From Cyanobacteria bacterium P01_A01_bin.114 (GTDB lineage: Bacteria > Cyanobacteriota > Cyanobacteriia > Phormidesmidales > Phormidesmidaceae), in the NCBI GenBank assembly GCA_039815385.1, contig JBCBZL010000088.1:1-15377 (forward strand): 15,377 nt of DNA. Direction: 5' to 3'. Position numbers and translations under genes: made by a program. The notes beneath the pieces are model-generated. The model worked only from the letters and a program-made list of their open reading frames with translations, had not been told where the DNA came from and searched no databases. Shown here in pieces: positions 1-15,377 of the stretch. The stretch's first letter is position 1, and every line of letters starts with the position of its first letter.

Positions 1-135
1 CGCTGGGTGTTTCCACAGAGTTAAACCTCCGCGAGATATCAATCAATAATTTGGTGCTGCTGCCCGCATCGTTTTCTAGGCTGGAGAACAGGGGATTGAG
101 GGGGCGGGGGAGCCTCTTTTCCACCTACTCACGGC

Positions 136-259
136 ATGTGCAACTTTTCTACTCCCCCCTTTCTCAAGGGGGGTTGGGGGGATCTCAATCTGTCAAAGGG
201 TAGGTCGATCCCCCTCGGTCCCCCTTGAGAAGGGGGATGTTCACTCAAAAGTTGCACAT
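136..259. repeat. Imperfect nested inverted-repeat element (MITE-like or large stem-loop) immediately 3' of the D2 paralog
   Basis: ATGTGCAACTTTT (136-148) is the exact reverse complement of AAAAGTTGCACAT (247-259). Each arm carries its own hairpin: CCCCCCTT-tctc-AAGGGGGG at 154-173 and CCCCCTT-gag-AAGGGGG at 220-236. A central pair GGGGGATC (177-184) / GATCCCCC (207-214) is also present. The right end lies 5 nt from the psbD3 stop codon. Confidence 0.7.
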
Positions 260-263
260 CGCG

Positions 264-1322
264 TTACTCAGAAAACCCCCTCGGTAAAACCTCTTCTGGA
301 AAGACAAACTTTTTCGCAGGCTGATCAAGCTCTGATACCCAGGCGCGTACCCCTTCATTGAGCAAAACATTTTTAGTGTAAAAAGTTTCGAACTCGGGAT
401 CTTGTGCCGCTCGGATTTCTTGACTCACAAAGTCATACGCTCGTAAGTTAAAAGCCAAACCCACCATGCCGATAGCGCTCATCCACAAGCCTGTTACCGG
501 CACAAACAGCATAAAGAAGTGGAGCCAACGCTTGTTAGAAAACGCAATCCCAAAGATTTGTGACCAAAAGCGATTAGCCGTCACCATCGAGTAGGTTTCT
601 TCTGCCTGAGTCGCGGAGAACCCACTAAAGGTGTTTTTACCTTCAGAATCTTTGAAAAGGGTATTTTGCACCGTTGCGCCATGAATCGCGCAGAGCAAGG
701 CCGCCCCCAGCACCCCGGTAACCCCCATCATATGAAAGGGATTGAGAGTGTAATTGTGAAACCCCTGGAAAAATAGCAGAAATCGGAAGATGGCAGCAAC
801 CCCAAAACTCGGTGCAAAAAACCAGCTTGACTGACCCAGCGGATAGATCAAAAATGTCGCGACAAAAACTGCAATGGGGGCTGAAAATGCGATCGCATTA
901 TAAGGCCGAATCCCCACCAAGCGAGCAATCTCAATCTGCCGCAGCATAAAACCCATCAGGCCTAGCACACCGTGGAAGGCGGTAAAATTCCACAGGCCGC
1001 CAATTTGGCACCAGCGGACAAAGTCCCCGTTGGCCTCTGGCCCCCACAAAAACAACAGTGAATGCCCCATGCTCTCGGCGGGGGTAGAGACGGCAGTTGT
1101 GAGAAAATTGCAGCCTTCTAGGTACGAGGTGACCAAGCCGTGGGTATACCAGGAGGTGACAAAGCTAGTGCCGGTAAACCAGGCCCCGATGGCTAAATAA
1201 GCACAGGGAAATAGCAACAGCCCTGACCACCCGATAAATACAAAGCGATCTCGTTTTAACCAGTCGTCAAGCTCGCCTATCCAGCTTCTAGCTGGCTTCA
1301 GCGCTCCCATTGAAATCGTCAT
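264..1322 (-). CDS. psbD3: Photosystem II D2 protein, divergent far-red (FaRLiP) paralog
   Basis: The 352-aa ORF is collinear with D2 from MTI... to ...[10 protein letters not shown]2 hallmarks are present: [27 protein letters not shown] (TyrD context), NPFHMMGV and CAIHGATV (His ligands), [11 protein letters not shown]. Many substitutions relative to the standard D2 I recall (e.g. [16 protein letters not shown]-terminus PRGFSE) and its position in a paralog cluster indicate a second copy. AAGGAG Shine-Dalgarno lies upstream of the ATG. Confidence 0.92.
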
Positions 1323-1349
1323 AATAGTCTCCTTGGGGTTATGTGTGTT

Positions 1350-1883
1350 TTAAGCAACTGACTCACTTTGACCGATACCGTCGTTCATGAAATAAGGAGG
1401 CCCCGGCAGGGCCAGCTCCTGAATAATTTCATCAAAATAAGGAACGATCGCTGCTGCATCGGCCTCTGTTAACTGTGCGATCGCTTCAGCTTTGAGGCAG
1501 CGCATATATTGCAAAATGTTTGTGAGGGGAATCCCGATATTGGTATACAGATCTTTCATCCCCACCAGGCCGATCTCTCTCAAGGGGCGATCGTCTCCAG
1601 CTAGCAAGCAGTAGCTAATCAAGCGAATATACCAACCGACATCTCGCTTGGCTGCCTCAGTTTTGCGACGATTGCCGCTGTTGCTAGGCGTCTTAGGACA
1701 GACCCGCCAAAATTGTCGAGTGCCTCGATCTACAATTGTTTGAGCCTGTTGCTCCAAAGTTTTGGCTAAGCGAATTCGCTCCGCTCCGGTTTTGCAAAAG
1801 GTGCGAATCATCCGCAGCTCACCGGGGGTAGGATAGCGCAGCTCTTCATCGGCGTTGAGAATAACTTGTTTAACGATACTCAT
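1350..1883 (-). CDS. apcD3: Allophycocyanin alpha-type subunit (ApcD-like, far-red paralog) lacking the canonical bilin-binding Cys and carrying a C-terminal extension
   Basis: I place the start at the ATG at 1883 (MSIVKQVILNADEELRY...), the normal phycobiliprotein alpha N-terminus. The track's 209-aa version starts at a TTG at 1979. It shares FWxxCxxTPSNSGN, GWYIRLISY and MRCLK with the other two alpha paralogs in this window. The aligned chromophore Cys (SC[LQ]RD in the paralogs) is Ala here (EAAKRD, codon at 1650-1652). The paralog number is assigned from gene order only. Confidence 0.8.
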   Translation of the reverse strand: MSIVKQVILNADEELRYPTPGELRMIRTFCKTGAERIRLAKTLEQQAQTIVDRGTRQFWRVCPKTPSNSGNRRKTEAAKRDVGWYIRLISYCLLAGDDRPLREIGLVGMKDLYTNIGIPLTNILQYMRCLKAEAIAQLTEADAAAIVPYFDEIIQELALPGPPYFMNDGIGQSESVA

Positions 1884-1890
1884 GGCTCTA

Positions 1891-1950
1891 CAGTTCGGAA
1901 TGTGGCAGCTCGGAATGAGATAATCCGGAAGGCAATAATTCGGAATACTG
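1891..1950. repeat. Four tandem 15-bp units, each containing TCGGAAT/CCGGAAG, directly upstream of the apcD3 start codon
   Basis: Units are cagTTCGGAATgtgg (1891-1905), cagCTCGGAATgaga (1906-1920), taaTCCGGAAGgcaa (1921-1935) and taaTTCGGAATactg (1936-1950). The core recurs at an exact 15-bp period (1895, 1910, 1925, 1940). The array ends 8 nt from the ATG at 1883 on the minus strand. Confidence 0.75.
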
Positions 1951-2100
1951 GGATCTGGGATAAACGCACACGCCTCCAAACCAACCGATATGGATGTGAT
2001 AGTCCAGGGGGTTGAAGGGCTGACAGAACAGCCTTAACCGTCTTAACGATTCTTTAGTGATAGGTTTCATGGGTCAGGTTCTCGATGTTAAAAGAACAAT

Positions 2101-4533
2101 TTAGGACTGGGCGCTGATCTCAGAGTCGACCGTATCCGCAACCGGCACTGTTTGTCCGTCAGGCGAGACCGCTTCTGTACGCCGCTCGCTATTGTCAGAA
2201 GAGATTGGTATGTTTTGCGTAGGCCGGTCTTGCTGGAGCAAATGCGATGGCTGAGCTTTAGACGGTTGAGTATCGTTAGGTGCTCGCTGAGTTTGACGAC
2301 TCGGGGCCATGACAGCCACGCTAGACCGATTCCCGATGCTAGAAACCGGATAGGGATGGTCGCGCATCCATTCACCTGCGGTGGGTGGGTTCTCTCTGGG
2401 CTTTGACCAGGCGACCGGGCCCTGGGGCGATCGCAACGCAAACCCACGCGGCGTCAGGTAGCGCTCGTAGGGGACGATATCTTCCCCAAAGACATCGCCA
2501 TATTCAGCACTGTCGACCAGGGTATCGACAAAGGCATAAAAGCCCTGGCGACCACAGATATCGTAGTAATGAGCCATTTCTCGTCGTCCGTAGGTGGGTC
2601 GCCCCAGCAACCGTCGATGGATATACTCAATTGCCTTGGTGACGTAGAGTTTTTCCCAGGTCATCTGACGAAACCAGCGAGTCTTGGCCAGCTGACGAAT
2701 AAACTCTCGCAGCGTGATCTGGCCTGCCTTGAGCTGAGTTTCGGCCACAGACTGTCGTTGAGTGTCAAAAACCTCGCGGCCAAACACCTGGCGATAGGCT
2801 GCTCGGATAACCGCTTCATGGGAATGGTGGGTGAGGTTCATGCTAGGCGGCGGTCCGGCTGTCGACCGGGCCAAATGGCCATTTCTAACCTGCCTGACCT
2901 GGCCAGACTCCCACCTCAGCACGTGACGGCCTAGGGAACCGGGGGCTCTGCCCAAATGGTTGCCCAGATGGCTGCCATTAACGCTGCCATTAGCGCCTCC
3001 GTTAGTGCTGCCGTGGCCGTTCCCCGCCCCGCTGCCAATTAAAATGCGGCGGCTGTCTTCGCTAAAATGAGCGGGTTGCGCTCTGGGGTCGCGAGTTTCT
3101 TGAGGGAAGATCGCCCCAAATTGAATTTCTAGCGGGTCGTTACCCACACCGTAGACATGTTGATTGGGTAAGGGCTGTTGATAGCTGGCAAAGGTGGTAA
3201 CAAACTGTGGCACCTTGCGAACAGGCGCACTGTACTTAAACAGATCTAGCTGCGGCCCCCAAATTCGGCATTCCTGGGCCTCTAGTCCCAACCCCCTGAG
3301 GAAAGGAACCGTCTCTTCACCAAAATAGTCGGCGTATTCCTCAGAGTCGATGAAGGTGTCTACCAGGGCTGGAAATCCCTGGGCCGAGATCACCTCAAAG
3401 CAGGTCTGAAACTCTTCCATGCAGCTTAACCCCCGTCCGAGAAAGTGGCGGCAGGCTAGCTCAATGCTGCGGCTGATCGTATAGGGCTCGTAATACAGCC
3501 GTCGATAGAGTCGCGATTTCCCCAGCTGACGAATAAACTCTTTCATCGACCAAAGACCGCTTTTAACCTGGGAGGTCAGCTCCGCCACAGCAGGCGCGTA
3601 GGGATGGGTAATATCGCGCTCGAAGACCTGTCGGTAAGCCGCCCGTATCACCTCATCTTTTTCAATGTCAGGCAGATCACGCTTCATCACCCATCGGGGT
3701 CGGGGGCTGCCGCTGTCACCATAGCTCTGGGGTAGCTGTAAGCCTGGATGATGCTTAGAAACCCCAACCCGCAGCCGAGGGGCCGGTTTTTCGACCCAAT
3801 AATCCGTAATCAGCACGTCAAAATACCGCTTGACTAGCGCCGCCGCTGCCGACTTAGCTGAAAAATAGGTGAGGGCTTTCCACTGCATTTCTTGCAGGGC
3901 GACAACGGTGGCCAGGGTGACATCCTCTGGAATCACGCCCCGCAGGCCTCGGGTATTGACACTGATGATGCTAGTGTCACCGGCCACAATGGCGTAGGTC
4001 ACATATCGCAAAAACCAGCTGAGATCCCGCAGCGAGCGCTTCATTCGAACGGGACCGTAGCGAGCGATGTCAATGGCCCGAAATCGACTGGGAACAGCAG
4101 GTTTACCCCCAGCCATCATGCCTTTAACCCACTCCATCAAACCGTTGGAGGCGTCTACAGAGCGGGGGCGATCTTGGACGACAGCCCGCTCTCGCTTTTG
4201 TCGGGTCGCTGCAGAGAGAAAGTCTTCTCCGACGTAGTAGCCTGAGCCCGGCAAACCCAGGGGGTCTTCGGGACGCTCTAGATAGGCCATCGCATTGCCC
4301 CCGACAAAGATGCGATTAGCCCCGGCAGCCACAATTTTGTCGGCTTGCTGAGTCAGGGTCTGGGCAATCTCTAGTCGCTTGAGTCCTGAGCTAAAGAAGG
4401 CTGAGAGTTCTTTGGCCTCGCTCTGGGTTAGATAGCGATCGCGCTGTTGCGCCTCAACAACTACCGCAGTCGGCACAGTGTGATACAGCTGCGGATGGAC
4501 AACTGGGCTGCCCCCGTTAATCTGATCGGTCAT
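2101..4533 (-). CDS. apcE2: Short phycobilisome core-membrane linker (ApcE paralog) with two REP/linker domains and a cysteine-free phycobiliprotein domain
   Basis: 810 aa. The N-terminal phycobiliprotein-like domain has a PB-loop (..PQLYHTVP..DRYL..RLEIAQTLTQQADKIVAAGANRIF..RYGPVRMKRSLRDLSWFLRYVTYAIVAGD..VALQEM). Only two linker (REP) repeats are present: EVIRAAYRQVFERD...FGEETVPFLRGLG (aa ~294-416) and EAVIRAAYRQVFGRE...FGEDIVPYERYLTPRG (aa ~573-697). Housekeeping ApcE has 3-4 REPs. Confidence 0.92.
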   Translation of the reverse strand: MTDQINGGSPVVHPQLYHTVPTAVVVEAQQRDRYLTQSEAKELSAFFSSGLKRLEIAQTLTQQADKIVAAGANRIFVGGNAMAYLERPEDPLGLPGSGYYVGEDFLSAATRQKRERAVVQDRPRSVDASNGLMEWVKGMMAGGKPAVPSRFRAIDIARYGPVRMKRSLRDLSWFLRYVTYAIVAGDTSIISVNTRGLRGVIPEDVTLATVVALQEMQWKALTYFSAKSAAAALVKRYFDVLITDYWVEKPAPRLRVGVSKHHPGLQLPQSYGDSGSPRPRWVMKRDLPDIEKDEVIRAAYRQVFERDITHPYAPAVAELTSQVKSGLWSMKEFIRQLGKSRLYRRLYYEPYTISRSIELACRHFLGRGLSCMEEFQTCFEVISAQGFPALVDTFIDSEEYADYFGEETVPFLRGLGLEAQECRIWGPQLDLFKYSAPVRKVPQFVTTFASYQQPLPNQHVYGVGNDPLEIQFGAIFPQETRDPRAQPAHFSEDSRRILIGSGAGNGHGSTNGGANGSVNGSHLGNHLGRAPGSLGRHVLRWESGQVRQVRNGHLARSTAGPPPSMNLTHHSHEAVIRAAYRQVFGREVFDTQRQSVAETQLKAGQITLREFIRQLAKTRWFRQMTWEKLYVTKAIEYIHRRLLGRPTYGRREMAHYYDICGRQGFYAFVDTLVDSAEYGDVFGEDIVPYERYLTPRGFALRSPQGPVAWSKPRENPPTAGEWMRDHPYPVSSIGNRSSVAVMAPSRQTQRAPNDTQPSKAQPSHLLQQDRPTQNIPISSDNSERRTEAVSPDGQTVPVADTVDSEISAQS

Positions 4534-4565
4534 GGTGTTTCCAAATCTCCAAATTCAACACTGCA

Positions 4566-5045
4566 CTAGGGCATTAGCCCTTGAATCAGATAGTCAAAGT
4601 AGGGGGCTACCTCCGCCGCGTCCTCTAGACTGAGGAAGTCTAAGGTGACTTCCTTGAGACAGCGCATACACTCCACTAAGTTTCTGAGGGGAATCTCCAA
4701 GGAGAGATACATTTCTTTGGCTCCTCTGATGCCGCTAGCCTGAAGCGGATCAATATCACCGACCACCACTGCATAAGAAATCAGGCGGATAAACCAACCC
4801 TGATCGCGCAGGCAGGAGGCCCGAAAGGTTGGGTTCCCGCTATTGCTGGGGGTGACTGCACAGCGCTGCCAAAAACGCTGGCTACCTTTTTCAACAATTG
4901 ACTGGACATTGTTAGTCAGAATAGAAGCAATTCGAAGCCGCTGCTGCCCATCTTGAAAGAAATGGCTAATGGTATCCAGTTCTCCTCGACTGAGATAGCG
5001 GGCCTCTCGATCGGCATTAGAGATTGCCTGGGTAATGATGCTCAT
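4566..5045 (-). CDS. apcD2: Allophycocyanin alpha-type subunit (ApcD-like, far-red paralog)
   Basis: 159 aa, MSIITQAISNADREARYLSRGELD... It retains the chromophore Cys (RASCLRDQGWFIRLISY) and shares FWQRCAVTPSNSGN and ECMRCLK with the other alpha paralogs here. The paralog number is tentative, from the order apcD5-apcB2-apcD2-apcE2-apcD3. Confidence 0.8.
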   Translation of the reverse strand: MSIITQAISNADREARYLSRGELDTISHFFQDGQQRLRIASILTNNVQSIVEKGSQRFWQRCAVTPSNSGNPTFRASCLRDQGWFIRLISYAVVVGDIDPLQASGIRGAKEMYLSLEIPLRNLVECMRCLKEVTLDFLSLEDAAEVAPYFDYLIQGLMP

Positions 5046-5083
5046 GATGAATGGGTTACCTTAACTAATATTCGATTTTGATA

Positions 5084-5210
5084 GGTGAGGGCGCTGCGCT
5101 GGTGAGGGCGCTGCGCTGGTGAGGGCGCTGCGCTGGTGAGGGCGCTGCGCTGGTGAAGACGCTGCGCTGGTGAGGGCGCTACGCTGGTGAGGACGCTGCG
5201 CTGGTGAACA
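5084..5210. repeat. Tandem array of a 17-bp unit GGTGAGGGCGCTGCGCT (about 7.5 copies)
   Basis: Four exact copies lie at 5084-5151. Variant copies follow: GGTGAAGACGCTGCGCT (5152-5168), GGTGAGGGCGCTACGCT (5169-5185), GGTGAGGACGCTGCGCT (5186-5202), then a partial GGTGAACA. The array sits in the apcB2-apcD2 intercistronic spacer. The unit length is not a multiple of 3 and no ORF spans it. Confidence 0.9.
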
Positions 5211-5220
5211 GTGAAGACTT

Positions 5221-5290
5221 CATCACCTACTCACCTACTCACCTACTCACTCACTCACCCACTCACCCACTCACCACTCACCCCCTCGCC
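5221..5290. repeat. Degenerate octamer array (CACCTACT x3, then CACTCACT, CACCCACT x2, CACCACT, CACCCCCT)
   Basis: The sequence reads catCACCTACTCACCTACTCACCTACTCACTCACTCACCCACTCACCCACTCACCACTCACCCCCTCGCC. Its CTCACC cores are the reverse complement of the GGTGAG cores of the adjacent 17-bp array. The array ends 7 nt before the apcB2 stop. Confidence 0.85.
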
Positions 5291-5296
5291 TAACGA

Positions 5297-5782
5297 CTAG
5301 CTGAGCCCCGAGCAGATATGGTCAAAGCAAACTCCCATTTCTCGACCGGCTTCTGCCCCTAGCATCTCGTTGACCACTTCCTTCATCGCCTGCACAGAGC
5401 GTACTGTAGCCCCCACTGGTACCCCCAGAGAGTTGTAAGTTTCTTTTAAGCCGTTGAGCACGCGCTCATCTAAAATGGACGGATCGCCCGCCAGCATGGC
5501 GTAGGTCGCATAGCGCAAGAAATACTCGACGTCACGAACACAGGCCGCATAGCGGCGACAGGTATACATATTGCCGCCGGGGCCAGTAATGTCGGTATAG
5601 AGGAGCGCTTTGGCGACTGTTTTGGTAACAATTGTGGAGGTGTTAGCGCTGATGGACATCGCTGCCCGCGCTCGCAAATCGCCACTGCGAAAATAGGATT
5701 GCAGATTTTCTAATGAAGCGTCGTCTAAATACTTACCTTGCACGTCAGAAGAATTGATCAAGGTGGTGATGGCGTCTTGCAT
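5297..5782 (-). CDS. apcB2: Allophycocyanin beta subunit, far-red paralog
   Basis: 161 aa, [20 protein letters not shown]... with the beta-type chromophore site [23 protein letters not shown] and [20 protein letters not shown] Shine-Dalgarno upstream. It lies directly downstream of an alpha-type gene, as in apcA-apcB operons. Confidence 0.9.
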
Positions 5783-5847
5783 GTTTTTCTCCTTAAGGGT
5801 TTGAAAATGATTGAATGATCTGTTGGCTATTAAAATTTGCGTCTTGA

Positions 5848-6324
5848 CTACAGCAGAGAATGGATAATGAGATCAAAATAGGGAGCCACCTCTTGGGCAT
5901 CTTCTTCGCTCAAGACGGTCATGGCTTCTTCCTTGAGACAGCGCATGCACTCTGCAATATTCCTAATCGGGATTTCTAGATTGTTGTACATTTCTTTGAT
6001 GCCCACCGTGCCAATTTCTTCTAGGGGGCGTTCGCTGCCTGCCAAGATAGAGTAGGCAATCAAGCGAACATACCAGCCTTGATCGCGCTGACAGGAGGCT
6101 GTCTTACGCTCATTGCCGCTGTTGCTTGGGGTATTTGGGCAGCGCTCCCAGAACTTTTGACTGCCGTTTTGGACAATCCGCTGTTCATTTTCGGCCAGGG
6201 CCCTGGCAATGCGAATGCGCTGTTCTCCCGTTTTGACAAAGTCTTGAAAGATTCGAAGTTCCTTGGGCGCAGGGTAGCGAGCTTCACTATCTGCACTGAG
6301 AATGAGTTCTGTAACCAGGCTCAT
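5848..6324 (-). CDS. apcD5: Allophycocyanin alpha-type subunit (far-red paralog, first gene of the apc block)
   Basis: 158 aa, [23 protein letters not shown]... It retains the chromophore Cys ([17 protein letters not shown]) and has [14 protein letters not shown] and ECMRCLK. Its position immediately upstream of apcB2 suggests the gene originally called apcA2 and later apcD5. That symbol is tentative. Confidence 0.8.
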
Positions 6325-6497
6325 TGTAATTTCTCCCTGTTTAAACGTTAATAATCAACTGGGTTTTCAAGTTTTCGCTTTCAGTCATCACAGCAAGATT
6401 TGGCATATAAAATTTGAACTCTTGCGTTCTAGAAAACGCTGATATCTGCCTAGATATCTCCCAACAAGGGACTTGCGGCGAAATAACCTACCGCTAA

Positions 6498-6654
6498 GCC
6501 CTCATCCTAAATCCTTCTCCCAATCTGGGAGAAAGACTTTGATCTGAGCCAGCTTTTCCCTGGCGAAGGACTCTTAAAACAATCGAATTCTACGTTGAGA
6601 AAGGCTTGGCTCCCCTTCTCTCAGTACTGGGAGAAGGGGTTGGGGGATGAGGGC
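6498..6654. repeat. MITE-like inverted-repeat element in the apcD5/psbO divergent intergenic region
   Basis: The termini are exact reverse complements: GCCCTCATCC (6498-6507) and GGATGAGGGC (6645-6654). Imperfect ~40-bp arms each contain a CTTCTCCCA..TGGGAGAAG-type hairpin. The right arm ends in GGGGTTGGGGGAT, related to the element at 136-259. Confidence 0.7.
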
Positions 6655-6767
6655 CTGTGAGCATGCTAGCTACCAGTATGTTATCTGTTTGCAGGTCCCT
6701 AAATGCCCGTCAAGCCTCGGGGAGACTCTTCTTACTAAGGTTTGCAAGAAGAATAAGCAAAGAAAAT

Positions 6768-6871
6768 GGAGAACTTATGAAAATATGAAAACTGCTTAAT
6801 AAAGGTTAATAATTAGCGGTGAACAGATTTCGTCTTCAGATTTCGTCTTCATAAGTTCTCCAGTTTTTTTT
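6768..6871 (+). promoter_or_regulatory. 13-bp perfect inverted repeat enclosing a 13-bp x2 direct repeat and followed by a T8 tract, ~105-205 bp upstream of psbO
   Basis: GGAGAACTTATGA (6768-6780) is the exact reverse complement of TCATAAGTTCTCC (6849-6861). This is followed by AG and TTTTTTTT (6864-6871). Inside the loop are CAGATTTCGTCTT x2 (6824-6836, 6837-6849) and TATGAAAA x2 (6776-6791). The function is unknown; it could be an attenuator, an operator or a small MITE. Confidence 0.4.
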
Positions 6872-6974
6872 GGTTGAATTTGTATCGTGGGATAGCGCCT
6901 TGTAGTCGCTTTGTCAGCGTACGAACGCACAGGGGCTGCTATGCCAATAGAAGAGTCTATAAGAGAGTAAAGAG

Positions 6975-7805
6975 ATGAGATATCGCACTTTAATGATGAG
7001 TTTATTAGTCTTGTGTTTTGGAGTATTCATGGCTTGCAGTCGTGCGCCGAGCGCGCAAGCTGAAGGATTAAGCTACGACGACATTAAAGGGAGCGGACTG
7101 GCTAATAACTGCCCTGAGCTTTCGCAGAGCAGTCTAGATGCCATTGTTATAGATGCTGATCAGTCTTATCAACTGAATGGGCTGTGCTTACAGCCCGAAG
7201 CGTTTTTGGTGAGGCGAGCGCCCCTCATAAAGCGCCAGGAGAGCAAATTTGTGCGCACCAAGCCCCTCACTCGGGAGAGTTTTAGCCTCGATCAGGTTAG
7301 CGGTGCTCTACAGAGGGGGGCCGATGGAAATTTGGCGTTTGTTGAGCAAGGAGGATTTGACTTTCAGCCTGTGACGGTTCAACTGCCTGATGGCGAGCGA
7401 GTGCCCCTGCTGTTTACAGTTAAAGGATTAGTGGCTAAAAAACAAGATGATTCAAACAACTTCGGCCCCTCTACTCGCCTGGTGGGCACCTTTCAGGTAC
7501 CGCCCTACCGGACTTCTAGCTTTATTGATCCAAAGGGTCGGGGCTTAGCCGTGGGCTACGATGCGGCGGTGGGGCTGCCGAGTCAGGCAGACCGTGAAGC
7601 ATTTGCTCGTCAGAACATTAAGACGTTTGATATTGGGCAGGGACGGATTGCGCTGCAAATTAATCGGGTCAACCGCACAACCGGAGAAATTGCCGGTCTT
7701 TTTGAAAGCGAGCAGCCGTCTGATACCGACTTCGGTTCTAAAGAAGCGATGGATGTCAAAATTCGAGGGCAGTTCTACGGTCGCATTGAGCCGGCAGTCG
7801 TTTAG
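6975..7805 (+). CDS. psbO: PSII manganese-stabilising protein (PsbO) paralog with signal peptide
   Basis: 276 aa. An N-terminal hydrophobic signal (MRYRTLMMSLLVLCFGVFMAC..SAQA) precedes PsbO hallmarks: LSYDDIKGSGLANNCPE, LCLQPEAFLV, GGFDFQPVTVQLPDGERVPLLFTVKGLV, FIDPKGRGLAVGYDAAVGLP, TGEIAGLFESEQPSDTDFG and VKIRGQFYGRIEP. The conserved Cys pair is present. Confidence 0.92.
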   Translation: MRYRTLMMSLLVLCFGVFMACSRAPSAQAEGLSYDDIKGSGLANNCPELSQSSLDAIVIDADQSYQLNGLCLQPEAFLVRRAPLIKRQESKFVRTKPLTRESFSLDQVSGALQRGADGNLAFVEQGGFDFQPVTVQLPDGERVPLLFTVKGLVAKKQDDSNNFGPSTRLVGTFQVPPYRTSSFIDPKGRGLAVGYDAAVGLPSQADREAFARQNIKTFDIGQGRIALQINRVNRTTGEIAGLFESEQPSDTDFGSKEAMDVKIRGQFYGRIEPAVV

Positions 7806-7832
7806 TCGAGTTTTAATAAGAGGTTCTTTATC

Positions 7833-7967
7833 ATGACTAACTTGAATCGTGACCCAGAGATTATCTATCCTATCTTTACGATTCGGTGGCTGTCGGTGCA
7901 TGCACTGGCGATTCCGAGCGTATTTTTCTTAGGGGCGATCGCAGCGATGCAGTTTATTCAGCGCTGA
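7833..7967 (+). CDS. psbF: Cytochrome b559 beta subunit (PsbF) paralog; small ORF absent from the supplied track
   Basis: My own translation of ATG 7833 to TGA 7965-7967 gives [44 protein letters not shown] (44 aa). This matches the PsbF pattern YPIFT[VI]RWL[AS]VH..[AV][15 protein letters not shown], including the heme-ligand His. It starts 27 nt after the psbO stop. Confidence 0.88.
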
Positions 7968-8064
7968 GGCTGCACCAGGGCATAATCACGCTGAGAAGCC
8001 CGTAAATTGGATGGGGTGAAATACGCTTTCTGAATCGCAACCGCCTCTGAATCGCAATCGCCGT

Positions 8065-8098
8065 AGAAGCCGGATTTTCTAATCCGGCTTCTTTTCTT
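8065..8098 (+). terminator. Intrinsic terminator hairpin between convergent psbF and psbV
   Basis: A perfect 12-bp stem is formed by AGAAGCCGGATT (8065-8076) and AATCCGGCTTCT (8081-8092), with loop TTCT, followed by TTTCTT on the plus strand. On the minus strand the same stem lies 20 nt after the psbV stop but has no U-tract. Confidence 0.7.
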
Positions 8099-8111
8099 AT
8101 GGGCTGTCAAC

Positions 8112-8636
8112 CTAGCGGGCAGGTTTGCCGCCGGCCCACTTGTCGCCAATGATTTTAGGCTGGACCAAAATATAGCCTGCGATCGCAACTAAATCATCCT
8201 CAGTCAAATCTCGCATCTTGGGAAAGAGATCGGCTCTTGACATGGACGGGTGCAGTTCGGCAATCGAGGAAACCCCATCGTAGGTGGTGGGGTTCTCAAA
8301 ATAATCAACCAGGCTTTCAATATTGTCACGGGGTGGGGTTGCTAACGCCAACGCTTGAGGCCCTAGATCGACATCAGGATTAGGTTTGCTCACCCCATCT
8401 AAGTGACACTGGGCACAGCTGCCATTAAACTTGCGCTGACCCACAACGAGTTGTTCCAGGCTCAGCGTGAGGGTTTCCCCTGACGCGTTGAGCGGAACCG
8501 TGCGGGTAGCCTCGTCAATTTCAACGGCGAGCGCCCTATTAGCCCCGATCACCGCCCATAGAACAGATGAAAGGGATATCACCAGCACAGCGTATATAGC
8601 AAACTTGATTAAGTTTTTTTTGAAATAGGCAATCAT
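8112..8636 (-). CDS. psbV: Cytochrome c550 (PsbV) paralog with signal peptide
   Basis: 174 aa. A signal peptide ends ..ANRALA. PsbV hallmarks follow: TVPLNASGETLTLS, heme motif CAQCH, LALATPPRDNIESLVDYFENPTTYDG, ELHPS (distal His), DLFPKMRDLTEDDLVAIAGYILVQPKIIGDKWAGGK. AGGAG Shine-Dalgarno upstream. Confidence 0.9.
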   Translation of the reverse strand: MIAYFKKNLIKFAIYAVLVISLSSVLWAVIGANRALAVEIDEATRTVPLNASGETLTLSLEQLVVGQRKFNGSCAQCHLDGVSKPNPDVDLGPQALALATPPRDNIESLVDYFENPTTYDGVSSIAELHPSMSRADLFPKMRDLTEDDLVAIAGYILVQPKIIGDKWAGGKPAR

Positions 8637-8737
8637 TTCGACATATCTCCTGAAAACGGTTTTGCCAAGTAAATAGCCATAACTAAGGGATCTGTGGGAT
8701 TTGCAACAAATAACATCTCGCTTCTAAATCGGGGGTT

Positions 8738-8840
8738 GGGTAGTGGGTAGTGGGTAGTGGGTAGTGAGTTGTTTGTTACTTGTTACTCGTTATTTGTAAT
8801 TGAAGTCACCAATCACCAATCACCAATCACCTACTCACAC
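8738..8840. repeat. STRR-like short tandem repeat block (GGGTAGTG x4, TGTTACT-like x3, CACCAAT x3, CACCTACTCAC)
   Basis: The sequence reads GGGTAGTGGGTAGTGGGTAGTGGGTAGTGAGTTGTTTGTTACTTGTTACTCGTTATTTGTAATTGAAGTCACCAATCACCAATCACCAATCACCTACTCACAC. It lies 100-200 bp upstream of the psbV start. Confidence 0.85.
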
Positions 8841-8972
8841 ACTCTGTCAGCTTTGACGAGCAGTTTATTTTTACGCCGATCCCTAAACTAAAGAAGATGA
8901 CATCTTCTTAAAAGATCTCCTTGAGGCAAACAAGTAGGTAAGCAAAATTATTTTCAGTACCACTTTCTGGTT

Positions 8973-9051
8973 GAGATCCCCCCAGCCCCCCTTAGCTCTA
9001 GCGAAGCGGCGGGCAAAGCCCGCGGGGGTGGCGCAGCCGGGGGGATCCCTC
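8973..9051. repeat. Inverted-repeat element related to the one at 136-259, in opposite orientation
   Basis: GATCCCCCC (8975-8983) pairs with GGGGGGATC (9039-9047), with an inner hairpin GCGGGC-aaa-GCCCGC (9009-9023). The reverse complement of 8973-8993 (AAGGGGGGCTGGGGGGATCTC) differs at one base from 166-186 (AAGGGGGGTTGGGGGGATCTC). Confidence 0.7.
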
Positions 9052-9347
9052 GGAAACGTGAAACAGTGAGTAATTTACTGACGCGGTACTTATTCTCCTC
9101 AAAGCGGAGTCAAGTTAGAGCTATATATCTAATAGCTTGAAAGTATCATACTCTTCTGGCCCTCAATGAATCAGATACCCTTTTTTGAAATAAGAAAGAA
9201 CAAAATTAGCATTCCCTTGTAACTTTTTCTAACACTGATCTTGGCCTTCATTAGTTCTCCATATTTCTCTTTTATTCTTGGCTTCACTGGCTGACAGACA
9301 GGTCGTACAGATCTAGTTGCGATCGTCAGAATAATTCGACTACAAAA

Positions 9348-9379
9348 CTATTCTCAGCTACTGTCTATTCTCAGCTACT
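9348..9379 (+). repeat. Exact 15-bp direct repeat CTATTCTCAGCTACT x2 (17-bp period) ~145-175 bp upstream of chlF
   Basis: Copies lie at 9348-9362 and 9365-9379, separated by GT, in an AT-rich region with no ORF. This is a candidate transcription-factor site, but only the repeat itself is observed. Confidence 0.8.
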
Positions 9380-9522
9380 AACATCTGTTGAGACTCAGCA
9401 GTCTCTGATCTATTTTCTGACCCGTATCTGGCTACCGCAGACAGCCTTTTATTGTGCTAAGCAGTTATTTTTGTGAACAACTTCAGTGACTTCAAAAAAT
9501 CAGTTAATACAGGAGCTTTAAG

Positions 9523-10764
9523 ATGACACAGTTTGGTAGAACGATCGCTTTTAATCGTCCTGACCAACTCCCTGGCCAACTCAAAGCGCCGGATAGCGTG
9601 TCTGACATCGAAAGCCTGTCCAGTGGTGTGAGCCCTCCAGATAGAGCCGCGATTCCAGAGCCCATTTCTCTTTGGGAACGCTTTTGTCGTTGGGTGACGA
9701 GTACTGAAAATCGGATCTACATTGGCTGGTTTGGGATGATTATGTTTCCCACCCTGTCTACGGCTGCCATTGTCTTTGTGCTGGCGTTTATAGCTGCGCC
9801 CGCAGTTGATATGGAGGGGACTGGGAGAGTCCTTTCGGGGGCTCTATTTGATGGAAATAACCTGATTACAGCCGCTGTTGTGCCGACTTCAGCTGCGATT
9901 GGGCTGCATTTTTACCCCATTTGGGAAGCTGCCTCTTTAGAGGAATGGCTCGTCAACGGGGGGCCGTATCAGCTAATTGTGCTGCATTTCATTATTGGCA
10001 TCATCAGCTATCAAGACCGAGAGTGGGAATTAAGCTATCGCTTAGGCATGCGCCCCTGGATTTCGCTGGCGTTTACAGCACCGGTTGCAGCGGCTGTCTC
10101 AGTGTTATTAATTTATCCGATTGGTCAGGGCAGCTTTTCGTCGGGCATGCCCTTGGGTATTTCGGGTACCTTTACCTTCATGCTGCAGTTTCAAGCCGAT
10201 CACAACATTCTGGCCAACCCGTTTCATCAGCTAGGGGTCATCGGTGTCTTTGGCGGTGCTTTGCTGTGTGCAGTCCACGGCTCATTAGTGACATCAGCCC
10301 TGATTCGACAAACTGACCACGGGTCTGATCGCGAATCTACGTTACCAGCGCGAGCTGAGTTGAAGAGAGCCCAAACAAAAATCCAGAGAAAAGCCCAGAA
10401 AACTTATAGCTTTGAGCATATCCAGGGCTACCAGCAGAAGCTGTTCTGGCGTGGGGTGAGTTTCAAAAACTCACGGTCTGTACACTTTGTTTTAGCGGCT
10501 CTCCCTGTGGCGGGTATCTGGTCGGCAGCATTGGGGATCGACATGGCTGCTTTTGGCTTTGATCAATTTTCTGGGTCTTCCAATGGATATTTCCAGAAAA
10601 CGGTCGTGCCCACCTGGTCTGATATTGTTGTTCGGGCCGATCTGGGGCTTCAGGCGGTTGAAGACACCCGTGAACCGATGTTCCCAATTTTTCTGGGAGA
10701 GGAGTCTGAATTTGATGTCAATACAGATGTCAATACGAATATTGCCGATCTAGACATGACTTGA
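9523..10764 (+). CDS. chlF: Super-rogue D1 paralog: chlorophyll f synthase (ChlF / PsbA4)
   Basis: 413 aa with a D1 fold ([70 protein letters not shown]). It has a ~37-aa N-terminal extension, a 12-aa basic insertion in the D-E loop and a C-terminal extension. The Mn4CaO5 ligand positions are replaced: D170>S (codon 10141-10143), E189>D, H332>E, H337>P, D342>F. The D1 Y-M-G-R triplet region reads Y-Q-D-R (QD codons 10012-10017). AGGAG Shine-Dalgarno upstream. Confidence 0.88.
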
Positions 10765-10814
10765 TTCATACCTAGACGGTTCAGCAAGCTTATTTAGCGA
10801 AAAGGAGTGTTGTA

Positions 10815-13166
10815 ATGACCACAAGTCCTCCGGAGCAGAGGCAGCAGGTTAGGGTTGTCGTCGATGATAATCCGGTTCCTACATCCTTTGAGAAGTGGGC
10901 AAAGCCGGGGCATTTTGAGCGAACCCTGGCACGGGGCCCCAAAACCACCACCTGGATTTGGGATCTGCATGCCGATGCCCATGATTTTGATAGTCATACC
11001 AGTGATTTGGAAGAGATTTCTCGAAAAATCTTCTCTGCCCATTTTGGTCATTTGGCCATCGTATTTATTTGGCTGAGTGGAATGTATTTCCACGGGGCTC
11101 GCTTTTCTAACTTTTCTGCTTGGATGAGCGACCCGACTCATATCAAGCCGAGTGCTCAAGTCGTTTGGCCAATTGTTGGGCAAGACATCCTCAACGCCGA
11201 TGTGGGGGGCGGCTTCCGGGGCATCCAAATTACCTCCGGGCTGTTTCAAATGTGGCGTGGACAAGGGTTTACCCATGAGTTCCAGCTTTACTGGACGGCC
11301 ATCGGTGCGCTAGTCATGGCGGCGCTGATGCTGTTTGCCGGCTGGTTTCACTACCACGTTCGGGCTCCCAAGCTAGAGTGGTTTCTCAACTGGGAGTCGA
11401 TGATGAACCATCACCTGGCAGGTCTGCTGGGGATGGGCAGTCTGGGCTGGGCTGGGCACCTGATCCATGTGGCACTGCCTACCAATAAGCTGCTGGATGC
11501 TGGGGTCGCCTTGGAAAACATTCCCCTACCCCATGATTTCATTCTGGATAAGGGGCTGATGGCAGAGCTCTATCCTAGCTTTGCCCAGGGTGTGAAGCCG
11601 TTTTTTACGCTGAACTGGTCGGCCTATACCGATTTTCTCACCTTTAGGGGTGGGCTCAATCCGGTGACGGGGGGCCTGTGGATGACGGATATTGCGCATC
11701 ATCATGTTGCGATCGCAGTCCTATTCATCATTGCAGGGCATTTCTACCGCACCAACTGGGGCATTGGCCACACCTTTAATGAGCTGCTGGACGATGCCAG
11801 AACCCCCAAAATGCTGCCCATCTTTAACTTTATTGGGCCGGTCGGACACCGGGGTCTTGAGAAAATCTTTGAGACGTCGTGGCACGCCAATCTCTCTATC
11901 CACCTGGTTCAGTTTGGTACGGCTAGTCTGCTGGTGGCTCATCACATGTACGCGATGCCGCCCTACCCCTACTTAGCCACGGACTATGCCACCGTGACCT
12001 CGCTGTTTACCCATCACGTCTGGATTGCAGGCTTCTGCATTGTGGGCGGGGCTGCCCATGCCGCCATCTTTATGGTGAGAGACTACAACCCCGCTGATCA
12101 CGTTAACAATGTGCTCGATCGGGTGTTACGCCATCGAGACGCGATTATCTCTCACCTGGCCTGGGTCTGTCAGTTCTTAGGCTTCCACAGCTTTGCCATG
12201 TACTGTCACAACGACACCATGCGAGCCTTTGGCCGTCCCCAGGATATGTTTTCTGACACCGGGATTCAGCTCCAGCCCATTTTTGCCCAGTGGATTCAGC
12301 ACATTCACACCATGGCGGTGGGCAGCCTGCAAGCGGCAGAGCCCCTGGGCAGTGCCTTTGGCGGTCTGCGTAACATCGAGCTGTCGGGCCTGGGCACCAC
12401 GGTTCCTGGAATGGCTGAGCCGGTCAGCTACGCCTTTGGCGGCGGCGTCCTGGCGGTGGGTGGCAAAGTCGCCATGATGCCCATTCCCCTGGGCACTGCC
12501 GATTTCTTAATCCATCACATTCACGCTTTCACCATTCATGTGACGGTGCTGGTACTGCTCAAAGGGGTGCTGTTTGCCCGCAGTTCTCGCTTGATTCCTG
12601 ATAAGGGCGAGCTGGGCTTCCGATTCCCCTGCGATGGGCCGGGCCGGGGGGGCACCTGCCAAGTGTCTGCCTGGGATCACGTGTTCTTAGGGTTGTTCTG
12701 GATGTATAACTCGCTTTCGATTGTGATATTTCACTTCTTTTGGAAAATGCAATCGGACGTCTGGGGCACGGTAAGCGCCGATGGCACCATTACTCATATT
12801 ACGGGGGGCAACTTTGCCCTGTCATCGATTACCAACAACGGCTGGCTGCGCGATTTTCTCTGGGCGCAGGCTTCCCAGGTGATCAACTCCTACGGCTCGG
12901 CACTGTCTGCCTACGGAATCATGTTCCTGGCTGGGCACTTTGTCTTTGGCTTTAGCCTGATGTTTTTATTCAGCGGTCGCGGCTACTGGCAAGAGCTGAT
13001 CGAGTCGATTGTTTGGGCTCACAACAAGCTGAAAATTACCACCGCGATTCAGCCTCGAGCCTTGAGTATCACCCAAGGACGAGCCGTGGGCGTTGCCCAC
13101 TACCTGTTAGGAGGTATTGTCACCACCTGGGCCTTCTTTTTGGCCCGTATGTCCGCAGTCGGATAG
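10815..13166 (+). CDS. psaA2: Photosystem I P700 apoprotein A1, far-red paralog
   Basis: 783 aa, collinear with PsaA: [31 protein letters not shown], the FX motif [19 protein letters not shown], and the C-terminal [36 protein letters not shown]. It has many substitutions and a ~24-aa insertion relative to the standard PsaA I recall. It lies 50 nt downstream of chlF, with AAGGAG Shine-Dalgarno upstream. Confidence 0.93.
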
Positions 13167-13211
13167 TGCCCAACCTTCTTCAATTGATCATTGAAAACTC
13201 AATTTAGAACC

Positions 13212-15377
13212 ATGGCGACAAAATTTCCAAAATTTAGTCAGGATTTACAGCGAGATCCGACCACCCGTCGGCTCTTCTATTCGATCGCCACGGCCCATGA
13301 CTTCGAAAGCCACGATGGGATGACGGAGGAAAACCTTTACCAGAGGATTTTTGCCTCCCACTTTGGTCATCTCGCCATTATCTTCCTGTGGATATCGGGC
13401 ATTTTGTTTCATGTGGCCTGGCAGGGCAATTTTGAACAGTGGATTCAAGATCCGCTGAACCGATCACCAATTGCCCACGCGATTTGGGATGCCCAGTTTG
13501 GACCGGCTGCGATTGAAGCCTATACCCAGGCAGGTGCCAGGAATCCGGTGGATATTTGCTATTCCGGGGTCTATCACTGGTGGTACACCATCGGCATGCG
13601 CACCAACAACGATCTGTTTGTGGGTGCTATCTTTTTGCTGCTGCTAGCCTCGGTAATGCTCTATGCCGGGTGGCTACACCTACAGCCCCGCTTTCGCCCC
13701 AACTTAAGCTGGTTTAAGAATGCCGAGTCTCGCCTAAACCACCATCTAGCTGGTTTGTTTGGGGTCAGCTCCCTGGCCTGGGCTGGGCACTTAATCCACG
13801 TGGCCATTCCTGAATCACGGGGCCAGCATGTGGGCTGGGATAACTTTCTAGCTGTGCCGCCCCATCCCGCCGGGCTGACGCCGTTTTTCACCGGCAACTG
13901 GGGAGCCTATGCTCAAAATCCTGATACGGCAGAGCATATTTTCAACAGCTCTCAGGGCGCAGGCACCGCAATTCTCACCTTTCTAGGAGGCTTCCACCCC
14001 CAGACAGAATCCCTGTGGCTGACGGATATGGCCCATCACCACCTGGCAATCGCGGTGATCTTTATCATCGCGGGTCACATGTACCGCACTAACTTTGGCA
14101 TCGGTCACAATATTAAAGAAATGACCGAAGCCCTCCAGGGGCCAGGGTGGAAAGGGTTCTTTATTGCGCCTCGCACCGGGCGCGGTCACAAGGGTATCTA
14201 TGATGCCTACAACAACTCTCTGCACTTTCAGCTGGCCTGGCATCTGGCCTGTTTAGGCGTCGTGTGCTCCCTGGTGGCGCAGCACATGTATTCAATGCCG
14301 CCCTATGCCTTTATGGCTCGCGACTACACCACCATGTCGGCCCTCTATACCCATCACCAGTACATCGCTGGGTTCCTGATGGTGGGGGCATTTGCCCACG
14401 GGGCGATTTTCCTGGTGCGCGACTACGACCCAGAAGCCAACAAAGACAACGTGCTGGCTCGGGTGCTAGACCACAAAGAGGCGATTATTGCCCACCTTAG
14501 CTGGGTGTGCTTGTTCCTAGGTTTCCACACGCTGGGGCTCTACGTTCACAACGACTGCGAGGTGGCCTTTGGCGCGCCCGAAAAACAGATTCTGGTTGAG
14601 CCCGTCTTTGCCCAGTGGATTCAAGCCTTTCACGGCAAAGCCCTCTATGGCATCAACACCCTGCTGTCTAACCCGGACAGCATTGCCACCACGGCCTGGC
14701 CCAATCACGGCAACGTCTGGCTGTCGGGCTGGCTAGAAGGGATCAACAGCGGTGCCAACTCGCTGTTTCTGACCATTGGACCAGGCGACTTTTTGGTACA
14801 CCATGCGATCGCACTGGGCCTCCACGTCACCACTCTAATTTTGGTGAAAGGAGCCTTAGACGCTCGCGGCTCGAAGCTGATGCCAGACAAAAAAGACTTT
14901 GGCTATAGCTTCCCCTGTGACGGCCCCGGTCGCGGCGGCACCTGCGACATCTCCGCCTGGGATTCTTTTTACCTGGCCATGTTCTGGATGCTCAACACGT
15001 TAGGCTGGGTTACCTTCTACTGGCACTGGAAACACCTGGCCATTTGGGGTGGCAACGTTGCCCAGTTTAACGAAAGCTCAACCTACTTAATGGGCTGGTT
15101 CCGCGACTATCTGTGGCTCAATTCATCCCAGCTGATCAATGGCTACAACCCTTACGGCACCAACAACCTGGCCGTTTGGGCCTGGATGTTCCTGTTAGGC
15201 CATCTCGTCTGGGCGGTGAGCTTTATGTTCTTAATCACCTGGCGAGGCTACTGGCAAGAACTGATTGAGACCCTGCTGTGGGCCCATGAAAATACCCCCC
15301 TCTCCTTTGGCTATCCCAAAGATAAGCCCGTTGCCCTGTCTATCGTGCAGGCTCGACTGGTCGGGCTAACCCATTTC
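13212..15377 (+). CDS. psaB2: Photosystem I P700 apoprotein A2, far-red paralog (3' end truncated by the window; missing from the ORF track because no stop is reached)
   Basis: My own translation from ATG 13212 gives [60 protein letters not shown]... The frame stays open for 722 codons to 15377. It contains [28 protein letters not shown] (from 14880) and ends ...[46 protein letters not shown], about 20 residues short of a normal PsaB C-terminus. Confidence 0.93.

Follow-up and report, generated by a model that had tools for sequence, protein, structure and literature searches.

Evidence for the central part of a group VI far-red light photoacclimation cluster in an uncultured marine cyanobacterium

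Far-red light photoacclimation (FaRLiP) allows cyanobacteria to grow on far-red light by remodeling photosystems and antenna and producing chlorophyll f. It is governed by the master regulators RfpA, RfpB and RfpC, and the promoter of chlF, the chlorophyll f synthase gene, is far-red inducible in a reporter (PMC10127269). In the group VI cluster architecture of the Nodosilineales, chlF is followed by the psa genes and then by the rfp genes, with psbO2, psbV2 and psbF2 as optional members; a conserved chlF motif and a class of intergenic motifs in 'long' and 'short' forms are described in the same study (bioRxiv 10.1101/2024.05.15.594131). Structures of the far-red light (FRL) complexes are available from Synechococcus sp. 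PCC 7335, namely photosystem II (FRL-PSII; 7SA3 and 8EQM), photosystem I (FRL-PSI; 7S3D) and the FRL allophycocyanin core (8UHE). Here we analyzed a complete contig of about 15.4 kb (positions 1-15377, hereafter the window) from the metagenome-assembled genome (MAG) Cyanobacteria bacterium P01_A01_bin.114, deposited at NCBI. The window very probably represents the central 15.4 kb of a FaRLiP cluster with group VI architecture, carried by an uncultured marine Leptolyngbya/Nodosilinea-like cyanobacterium. A first-pass annotation had read it as a FaRLiP-type cluster built around ChlF, and this reading is supported by the paralog scores, the ChlF signatures, the synteny and the regulatory motif.

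Gene identities, paralog assignments, signature residues, synteny and motif positions were all read directly from the sequences compared. The open reading frame (ORF) listing and the family scans located all 12 of the photosynthesis genes named by that annotation at the implied places, with intact reading frames. From left to right, a partial psbC2, psbD3, apcD3, apcE2, apcD2, apcB2 and apcD5 lie on the minus strand, psbO and psbF on the plus strand, psbV on the minus strand, and chlF, psaA2 and a partial psaB2 on the plus strand. Coordinates and strands agree with the apc order that had been claimed (alpha-beta-alpha-apcE-alpha, followed by psbD) and with the proposed chlF-psaA-psaB run. The word 'divergent', used for these gene copies, is justified for the three Apc alpha subunits (136-163 bits against an ApcA model cut-off of 270) and for the D1-like protein (460 bits against a psbA cut-off of 596), because these scores lie under the cut-offs, far under in the case of the alpha subunits.

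A scan of one genome per species gave 72 loci encoding ChlF relatives, at least 16 of which have the identical 12-gene order and orientation. The cultured strains among them are Leptolyngbya cf. ectocarpi LEGE 11479, Oscillatoria sp. CS-180, Nodosilinea sp. P-1105, LEGE 07298, LEGE 07088 and Vasconcelosia minhoensis. As in the published group VI architecture, chlF stands just upstream of psaA2-psaB2, the apc genes are followed by psbD, and the two arms are separated by psbO, psbF and psbV. Taxonomically, the closest relatives fall in the Nodosilineales, the order that contains both Nodosilinea and Halomicronema. The match to published FaRLiP gene order that the first-pass annotation had stated is thus borne out by these syntenic genomes and by the published architecture.

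The chlF gene (9523-10764, plus strand) encodes a protein of 413 aa that we recognize as a 'super-rogue' D1 paralog from its signature residues and named homologs, using the conserved ChlF residue set and the group 1 'super-rogue' D1 class as reference (PMC10535343). In an alignment to D1, and in D1 numbering, Q127-D128 (the 'QD motif') replaces M-G; L117, S144, L145, F147, Q252 and S285, which are conserved in ChlF, are all present, giving eight conserved residues with the QD pair. Residues Y161, H190, H198, H215 and H272 are kept (YZ/H190, the P680 ligand and the non-heme-iron ligands). The ligands of the Mn4CaO5 cluster are replaced (D170S, E189D, H332E, E333D, D342F and A344G), and H337 is changed to Pro. 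The earlier description of a Mn-ligand-deficient D1 therefore holds residue by residue. With the Mn4CaO5 ligands gone and the QD motif in place, the protein cannot support water oxidation, and introduction of the QD motif into D1 has been reported to permit chlorophyll f production in vivo (PMC10535343). Carrying every published signature, the D1-like protein is, as judged from its sequence, ChlF. Homologs annotated as 'light-dependent chlorophyll f synthase' are found in Synechococcus 7335 (67% identity), Leptolyngbya cf. ectocarpi and others, and the identity to the protein of Halomicronema hongdechloris is 74%. The nearest ChlF in the collections is just 86% identical, which points to a distinct lineage.

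The window ChlF is among the longer ones in the match list, with an N-terminal extension of about 45 residues (9523-9660), an 11-residue insertion in the D-E loop and about 20 residues past the D1 processing site (10700-10764). The N-terminal extension and its start context, AGGAGCTTTAAGATG, are kept in close relatives.

The comparison of far-red and white-light paralogs that the first-pass annotation had called for was made with bit scores against solved structures of both kinds of complex, including one pair from the same organism. The identities of the PDB entries were checked in the reporting papers; 6KMX and 6KMW are the far-red and the white-light photosystem I (PSI), respectively, of H. 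hongdechloris. The product of psaA2 (10815-13166, plus strand; 783 aa) scores 1704 bits with the far-red chain 6kmx_aA and 1342 bits with the white-light protein of the same organism (6KMW). Its four top matches are the FRL chains 6kmx_aA, 9eys_A, 7s3d_A and 6pnj_A, which are 782-788 aa long, whereas white-light PsaA proteins reach at most 1385 bits and are mostly 739-764 aa long. The psaA2 product has the approximately 30 extra residues typical of FRL PsaA. For psaB2 (13212-15377, plus strand; truncated at the contig end, with 722 of about 743 codons), the scores are 1598 bits with 6kmx_aB and 1567 with 7s3d_B, as opposed to 1449 with the white-light 6kmw_aB. The gene of the far-red D2 paralog, psbD3 (264-1322, minus strand; 352 aa; TIGR01152, 703 bits), encodes a protein that is 88.9% identical to the product of the Synechococcus 7335 cluster gene and scores 736 bits with chain D of its FRL-PSII (7SA3/8EQM), compared to 681 bits with the best white-light D2. 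Every protein scored in this way favors the far-red paralog over the white-light one. The outcome that had been named as refuting a FaRLiP assignment, a grouping with the white-light paralogs, was looked for and does not occur.

The allophycocyanin genes were assigned from the same structural comparison. The first gene of the apc-psbD3-psbC2 operon is apcD5 (formerly apcA2; 5848-6324, minus strand), which encodes the main far-red alpha subunit (158 aa); its product is 92% identical to the Synechococcus 7335 protein and scores 320 bits with 8uhe_A 'ApcD5'. It is followed by apcB2 for the beta subunit (5297-5782, minus strand; 161 aa), with 306 bits to 8uhe_B 'ApcB2' compared to about 265 to canonical ApcB. 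Two further alpha-type subunits are encoded by apcD2 (4566-5045, minus strand; 159 aa), whose best match is 8uhe_I 'ApcD2' at 256 bits, and by apcD3, whose best match is 8uhe_C 'ApcD3' at 298 bits. The ORF of apcD3 (1350-1979, 209 aa) had to be corrected; the true start is the ATG at 1883, which gives a gene of 1350-1883 on the minus strand and a product of 177 aa. Against canonical ApcA and ApcD the alpha subunits score only about 100-170 bits, far under the values for ApcD5, ApcD2 and ApcD3. The core-membrane linker gene apcE2 (2101-4533, minus strand; 810 aa) encodes a Pfam PF00502 domain and two PF00427 (REP) domains, and its product scores 1022 bits with 8uhe_K 'ApcE2' and at most 918 with canonical ApcE.

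The bilin-binding residues are also of the far-red type. Two REP domains in ApcE2 and non-covalently bound bilins in ApcE2 and ApcD3 have been published for the far-red core (PMC10810746). The phycobiliprotein domain of the window ApcE2 contains no Cys at all and has Ser in RMKRSLRDLSWFLRY, at a position common to the Synechococcus 7335 protein. ApcD3 has Ala at the position of the bilin-binding Cys (KTEAAKRD), whereas ApcD5 and ApcD2 have Cys there. Lacking this Cys, ApcD3 is predicted to hold its phycocyanobilin by non-covalent contacts. Red-shifted antenna or photosystem paralogs are likewise involved in the low-light photoacclimation (LoLiP) apcD4-apcB3 system and in the Acaryochloris-type chlorophyll d system, and the window could in principle be read as one of these instead. 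We give this reading next to no weight. The alpha subunits score 256-320 bits with ApcD5, ApcD2 and ApcD3 of 8UHE but 153-181 with the helical far-red ApcD4 of 8DDY. These scores, the ChlF gene with all its signatures and the agreement in synteny with FaRLiP clusters together refute both systems.

Since the genes of the window are all members of core photosynthesis families, and the white-light copies of this MAG are presumed rather than directly seen, the genes could also be the ordinary, and only, photosynthesis genes of the organism, clustered by chance and containing no far-red set. This is hardly credible. A D1-like protein that lacks five Mn4CaO5 ligands and carries the QD motif makes water oxidation impossible, and the ApcE protein, with two REP domains only and no bilin Cys, is also not of the ordinary form. 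The proteins score higher with far-red than with white-light paralogs, including the same-organism pair 6KMX and 6KMW, and psbF stands alone, lacking psbE, psbL and psbJ. Moreover, the closest model organism, Synechococcus 7335, has both a far-red and a white-light set. By analogy, white-light copies would be expected elsewhere in this genome, as would the rest of a FaRLiP cluster.

The window is the whole contig and therefore has no flanks to inspect. Its left end contains the start of a thirteenth gene, psbC2, which is absent from the list of the first-pass annotation. This far-red CP43 paralog is partial (1-16, minus strand): a GTG start at 16-14 begins five codons (M-E-T-P-S) that are cut by the contig end. 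The fragment reads GTG GAA ACA CCC AGC G, with a GGAGG ribosome-binding site just upstream. Its start aligns with the METP starts in the Synechococcus 7335 locus (L073) and in two close relatives on longer contigs (L075 and L076), and in all three psbC2 follows psbD3. In straight translation of positions 1-263 PsbC was not found; the later alignment to relatives assigned only the 16 terminal bases to psbC2 and the remainder of this interval to a repeat-filled spacer. The contig thus runs from within codon 6 of psbC2 to codon 722 of psaB2. Since close paralogs exist for both of these genes, the two breaks look like assembly breaks. In L075 and L076, psbC2 and psbB2 follow to the left of the part equivalent to the window, and the right side continues with psaL2, a small psaI2-like gene, psaF2, psaJ2 and then rfpB, with rfpA next in L076. 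The rfpB products of these relatives have receiver, winged-helix, Hpt and receiver domains, and the rfpA product has a GAF-PHY-PAS-kinase arrangement.

The regulatory evidence comes from a T-rich motif. Alignment of 450 bp upstream of chlF in 19 sequences contains one strong block, in which a gap of variable length separates the 5' box TGTAACTTTTCCTAAAG from the 3' box CTTCATTAGTTCTCCATTTTTC. In the window this motif spans about 61 bp (9218-9280, plus strand; 5' box TGTAACTTTTTCTAA, 3' box CTTCATTAGTTCTCCA), lies 243 bp upstream of the chlF ATG and fits the published description of the chlF motif. With the motif profile, 46 loci gave a match upstream of chlF and 14 gave one upstream of apcD5. 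A 'long' motif (6751-6807, minus strand; nhmmer E = 9e-5), with its core TTCATAAGTTCTCCA at 6781-6767, faces the apc operon and is the presumed RfpB-dependent promoter element. A 'short' motif (6841-6869, plus strand; core at 6848-6862) faces psbO-psbF. The 15-nt core TTCATWAGTTCTCCA is present in three exact copies in the window, where none is expected, and each copy points at its operon (chlF, apcD5 and psbO). The repeat finder independently recovered the motif copies (I1; I6, 91% complementary). In the 17 syntenic sequences, the window included, the core faces apcD5 in 17, chlF in 16, psbO in 10 and psbV in none.

The 'long' and 'short' motifs form a divergent pair in the apcD5-psbO spacer, which is also present in Synechococcus 7335 (L073, 9717/9814). 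The two cores are 67 nt apart in the window because of a 13-bp tandem duplication (6824-6851); most relatives have a spacing of 52-54 nt, and Synechococcus 7335 has one of 97 nt. A FaRLiP motif was also considered for psbV and rejected, as the match is weak (E = 0.72) and no relative has the core. A second conserved non-coding block (9129-9203) lies between psbV and the chlF motif; with nhmmer it is found in the nearest relatives only, at E <= 1e-9 in eight relatives (nine loci, two of them on the same contig), with two additional weak matches. This block may be a divergent psbV promoter, with TATGAT on the minus strand, and in the window it is set apart from psbV by about 400 bp of repeats. 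A generic sigma-70 promoter scan gave 14 hits compared to 11.8 in shuffled sequence and was therefore excluded from the evidence. An Rfam scan of the window found no known RNA family at E <= 0.1.

Several spacers and leaders of the window are expanded by repeats. The psbD3-psbC2 spacer, with a GC-rich palindromic element at 131-264 (inverted repeats I4 and I11), is 247 bp long, compared to 45-169 bp in L073, L075 and L076. One arm of the palindrome recurs at 8971-8993 (I3, 96%), and GAGATCCCCCCARCCCCCCTT is found both there and at 166-188. The apcB2-apcD2 spacer measures 251 bp, compared to 44-108 bp in the same three loci, and contains tandem arrays at 5067-5292 (about 7 copies of a 17-bp unit and about 8 of an 8-bp unit; repeat entries D1 and D3). 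From motif to ATG, the apcD5 leader is 427 bp long, compared to 67-460 bp in relatives, and the psbV-chlF spacer of 886 bp contains heptamer arrays. The heptamers TGGGTAG, TTGTTAC and TCACCAA occur in intergenic tandem arrays, an inverted repeat resembling a miniature inverted-repeat transposable element (MITE) lies at about 6506-6644, and further repeat-enlarged stretches are found at 6480-6655, 8737-8831 and 8960-9050.

The window also lacks nblA. A paralog of this gene, which encodes a phycobilisome-degradation protein, lies between psbF and psbV in nine related genomes, including Synechococcus 7335 (L073, 11059-11280) and the relatives L075 (9563-9730) and L076 (8912-9088). A search of the corresponding spacer in the window (7968-8111) found none. 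The gene is also missing from other syntenic loci, including those of cultured Nodosilinea strains and Oscillatoria sp. CS-180. The Synechococcus 7335 paralog is mentioned in PMC8689208; the main text of the Antonaru preprint (bioRxiv 10.1101/2024.05.15.594131) does not mention it.

It is possible to read the nblA loss and the repeats as signs that the window is a real FaRLiP-type fragment of a reduced, split or decaying cluster, which might lack regulators or PSII genes or be impaired by repeats, so that full photoacclimation would not take place. Just 15.4 kb of the cluster is at hand, split and partial clusters are documented (bioRxiv 10.1101/2024.05.15.594131), and in Synechococcus 7335 the chlF and psa genes are apart from the apc and psb genes. 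We nevertheless consider decay improbable. All 12 of the 12 frames are intact and align full-length with functional homologs, the three motif cores are all exact, and close relatives have complete clusters. The positions of the contig ends, inside the conserved psbC2 and psaB2, fit assembly breaks at paralogous sequence and not a biological truncation, and the absence of nblA from cultured syntenic strains argues in the same direction. Neither the nblA loss, nor the repeats, nor the spacing change alters the classification of the window as a FaRLiP cluster.

The psbO-psbF-psbV module between the two arms requires separate consideration. The cluster-linked psbO (6975-7805, plus strand; 276 aa; Pfam MSP, 328 bits) corresponds to psbO2 in Antonaru et al. 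(bioRxiv 10.1101/2024.05.15.594131) and to PsbO1 in Synechococcus 7335. Its product scores 369 bits with 8eqm_O, a chain that is the exact product of the cluster-adjacent psbO of Synechococcus 7335, and at most 303 bits with other PsbO structures. The second cytochrome b559 beta subunit is encoded by psbF2 (7833-7967, plus strand; 44 aa; TIGR01333, 84.5 bits), which stands alone with no psbE, psbL or psbJ beside it; its product keeps the heme-ligand His and is 77% identical to the cluster-adjacent PsbF2 of Synechococcus 7335. PsbF2 has been modeled in FRL-PSII (PMC8689208, PMC9843442). The cytochrome c550-type paralog psbV (8112-8636, minus strand; 174 aa; TIGR03045, 214 bits against a cut-off of 178) encodes a CAQCH heme site and keeps the distal His, is 63.5% identical at the protein level to the cluster-adjacent PsbV of Synechococcus 7335, and keeps its position and strand across at least 16 loci. 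A hairpin with a 12-bp stem and a T-run (8065-8092, plus strand), likely the psbO-psbF terminator, lies in the 144-bp convergent psbF2/psbV spacer. On sequence grounds the three genes are syntenic orthologs of members of the Synechococcus 7335 operon psbO1-psbF2-nblA-psbV; in that organism these are second copies, and their products are physically present in FRL-PSII.

NCBI annotates the window PsbO as a protein of 258 aa starting at a later ATG, whereas the 276-aa frame matches its homologs. An LTAC lipobox-like sequence precedes the mature N-terminus in nearly all PsbO homologs retrieved; the window protein has FMAC, followed by an AQA|EG site of the signal-peptidase-I type, and its nearest relative has LTAF. 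A lipoprotein-type signal was rejected as a mark of far-red PsbO, as LTAC is found in almost all of the homologs retrieved.

There is less certainty about the far-red specificity of psbO, psbF and psbV than about that of the core genes, as psbF is reported to be unmodulated in Synechococcus 7335 and the PsbO identities form a graded series, in which the cluster-linked copies (down to 59%) pass with no gap into other PsbO (53-57%). They may be no more than lineage-specific constitutive neighbors, perhaps even the main copies, instead of far-red-specific paralogs. The names PsbO1 and PsbV1 of the syntenic Synechococcus 7335 genes are in line with this possibility, as is the placement of the psbO/psbF/psbV operon outside the FaRLiP cluster by Gisriel et al. 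(PMC9843442); psbV, moreover, has the motif core in none of the 16 loci or the window. Conversely, psbO has a FaRLiP core directed toward it in the window, as it does in Synechococcus 7335 and in 9 of the 16 related loci, and PsbO1, PsbF2 and PsbV1, the cluster-adjacent isoforms, are more abundant in purified FRL-PSII than PsbO2, PsbF1 and PsbV2 (Gisriel et al.; PMC8689208, PMC9843442). Antonaru et al. cite experimental evidence for far-red psbO2 and psbV2 and recover psbF2 as an optional FaRLiP gene (bioRxiv 10.1101/2024.05.15.594131), and a stand-alone psbF is clearly an extra copy beside psbEFLJ, as in Synechococcus 7335. On balance we regard constitutive neighbors as unlikely, though this reading keeps appreciable weight.

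A more specific proposal would be that psbO-psbF(-nblA) and psbV are true members of the RfpB regulon in the Nodosilineales, with psbO-psbF(-nblA) driven from the divergent core pair that it has in common with the apc operon, and that the lumenal cap and the cytochrome b559 beta subunit are also swapped in far-red light. We advance this tentatively, at slightly less than an even chance. If it is correct, the MAG would indicate that the module can do without its nblA member, and that a 13-bp change in the spacing of the promoter pair and a few hundred bases of repeats in the apc leader are both tolerated. The regulon idea has mostly been proposed already by Antonaru et al.; only the geometry of the divergent pair and its variation would be new.

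By analogy with the characterized systems, the following sequence of events can be proposed for the FaRLiP cluster of the window. In shade enriched in far-red light, the phytochrome kinase RfpA would signal through RfpC to the DNA-binding regulator RfpB, which would activate the promoters that carry the T-rich motif, three of which are in the window. The first would drive chlF-psaA2-psaB2, continuing into psaL2-I2-F2-J2 in relatives; the second apcD5-apcB2-apcD2-apcE2-apcD3-psbD3-psbC2, extended by psbB2 in close relatives and by psbH2 in Synechococcus 7335; and the third psbO-psbF. ChlF, a D1 paralog unable to hold the Mn4CaO5 cluster, would form chlorophyll f by photo-oxidation of chlorophyll a (or chlorophyllide a). 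The white-light paralogs would then give way to PsaA2/PsaB2 and PsbD3/PsbC2, which would bind chlorophyll f, together with chlorophyll d in PSII. ApcD5, ApcB2, ApcD2, ApcD3 and ApcE2 would build small bicylindrical allophycocyanin cores absorbing near 710 nm, in which the non-covalent bilins of ApcE2 and ApcD3 may act as the red-most terminal emitters. The linked PsbO, PsbF and PsbV could be the source of the lumenal and cytochrome b559 subunits that far-red PSII preferentially contains.

Some points weigh against this interpretation. The contig ends inside psbC2 and psaB2, and rfpA/B/C, psbA3, psbB2, psbH2 and psaL2/I2/F2/J2 are not within its 15.4 kb. Function in this MAG, including far-red induction and chlorophyll f synthesis, would follow from orthology, and binding of RfpB to the motif is a step that we infer. 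Synechococcus 7335, the nearest model, shows modest FaRLiP induction, with chlF rising about 5-fold (PMC10127269), and both of its psbF genes are stated to be 'not modulated by FaRLiP' (PMC8689208). Added to these are the lower certainty for psbO, psbF and psbV, the lack of a motif core at psbV in all 17 sequences, and the repeats that lengthen the leaders of the apc operon and psbV as well as two intra-operon spacers.

The type of cluster seen in the window has already been published, down to the gene order and the intergenic motif, and the window is a further example that leaves the current understanding of FaRLiP unchanged. It adds one more uncultured marine lineage to the catalogue of probable chlorophyll f producers, with the gene order proposed to be closest to the ancestral FaRLiP cluster. 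Its natural variants, namely nblA loss, altered motif spacing and expanded leaders, affect the regulatory region and the optional psbO/psbF/nblA/psbV module. Such variants could help to define the essential parts of the cluster and its promoters, and could be useful for engineering far-red photosynthesis.

Among the described systems, Leptolyngbya sp. JSC-1 and the Nostocales-type clusters (groups I-V) contain the same core families and follow the same logic of RfpABC and far-red-inducible chlF, but chlF, rfp and psa are arranged otherwise and psbO, psbF and psbV are usually outside the cluster. H. hongdechloris, the first source of chlorophyll f and a member of the same order, Nodosilineales, provides the top structure matches of PsaA2 and PsaB2. 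Its ChlF has H332E, E333D and E189D in common with the window protein (PMC10535343), whereas D170 is replaced by Ala and D342 by Val, in place of the Ser and Phe found here.

Synechococcus 7335 has orthologs of every window gene. The apcD5-B2-D2-E2-D3-psbD3-psbC2 arm, the adjoining divergent psbO-psbF and the motif pair are the same, and its ApcE2 and ApcD3 are also without the bilin Cys. The two differ in that its psbV runs in the same direction as psbO-psbF and nblA intervenes between psbF and psbV, whereas the window psbV is inverted and nblA is absent. In addition, chlF-psaA2-psaB2 of Synechococcus 7335 lies elsewhere in the genome, apart from the apc and psb genes, whereas it is contiguous with them in the window, and the isoform numbering differs (PsbO1/PsbV1). 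The closest resemblance is to the group VI clusters, which include those of the MAGs P01_H01_bin.26 and P01_A01_bin.123. The window differs from them in the absence of nblA between psbF and psbV, in four repeat-enlarged intergenic regions and in the 13-bp duplication within the motif pair, and it holds only the central part of the cluster. In gene order, orientation and motif layout it is the same as these loci, with protein identities of 59% to 97%.

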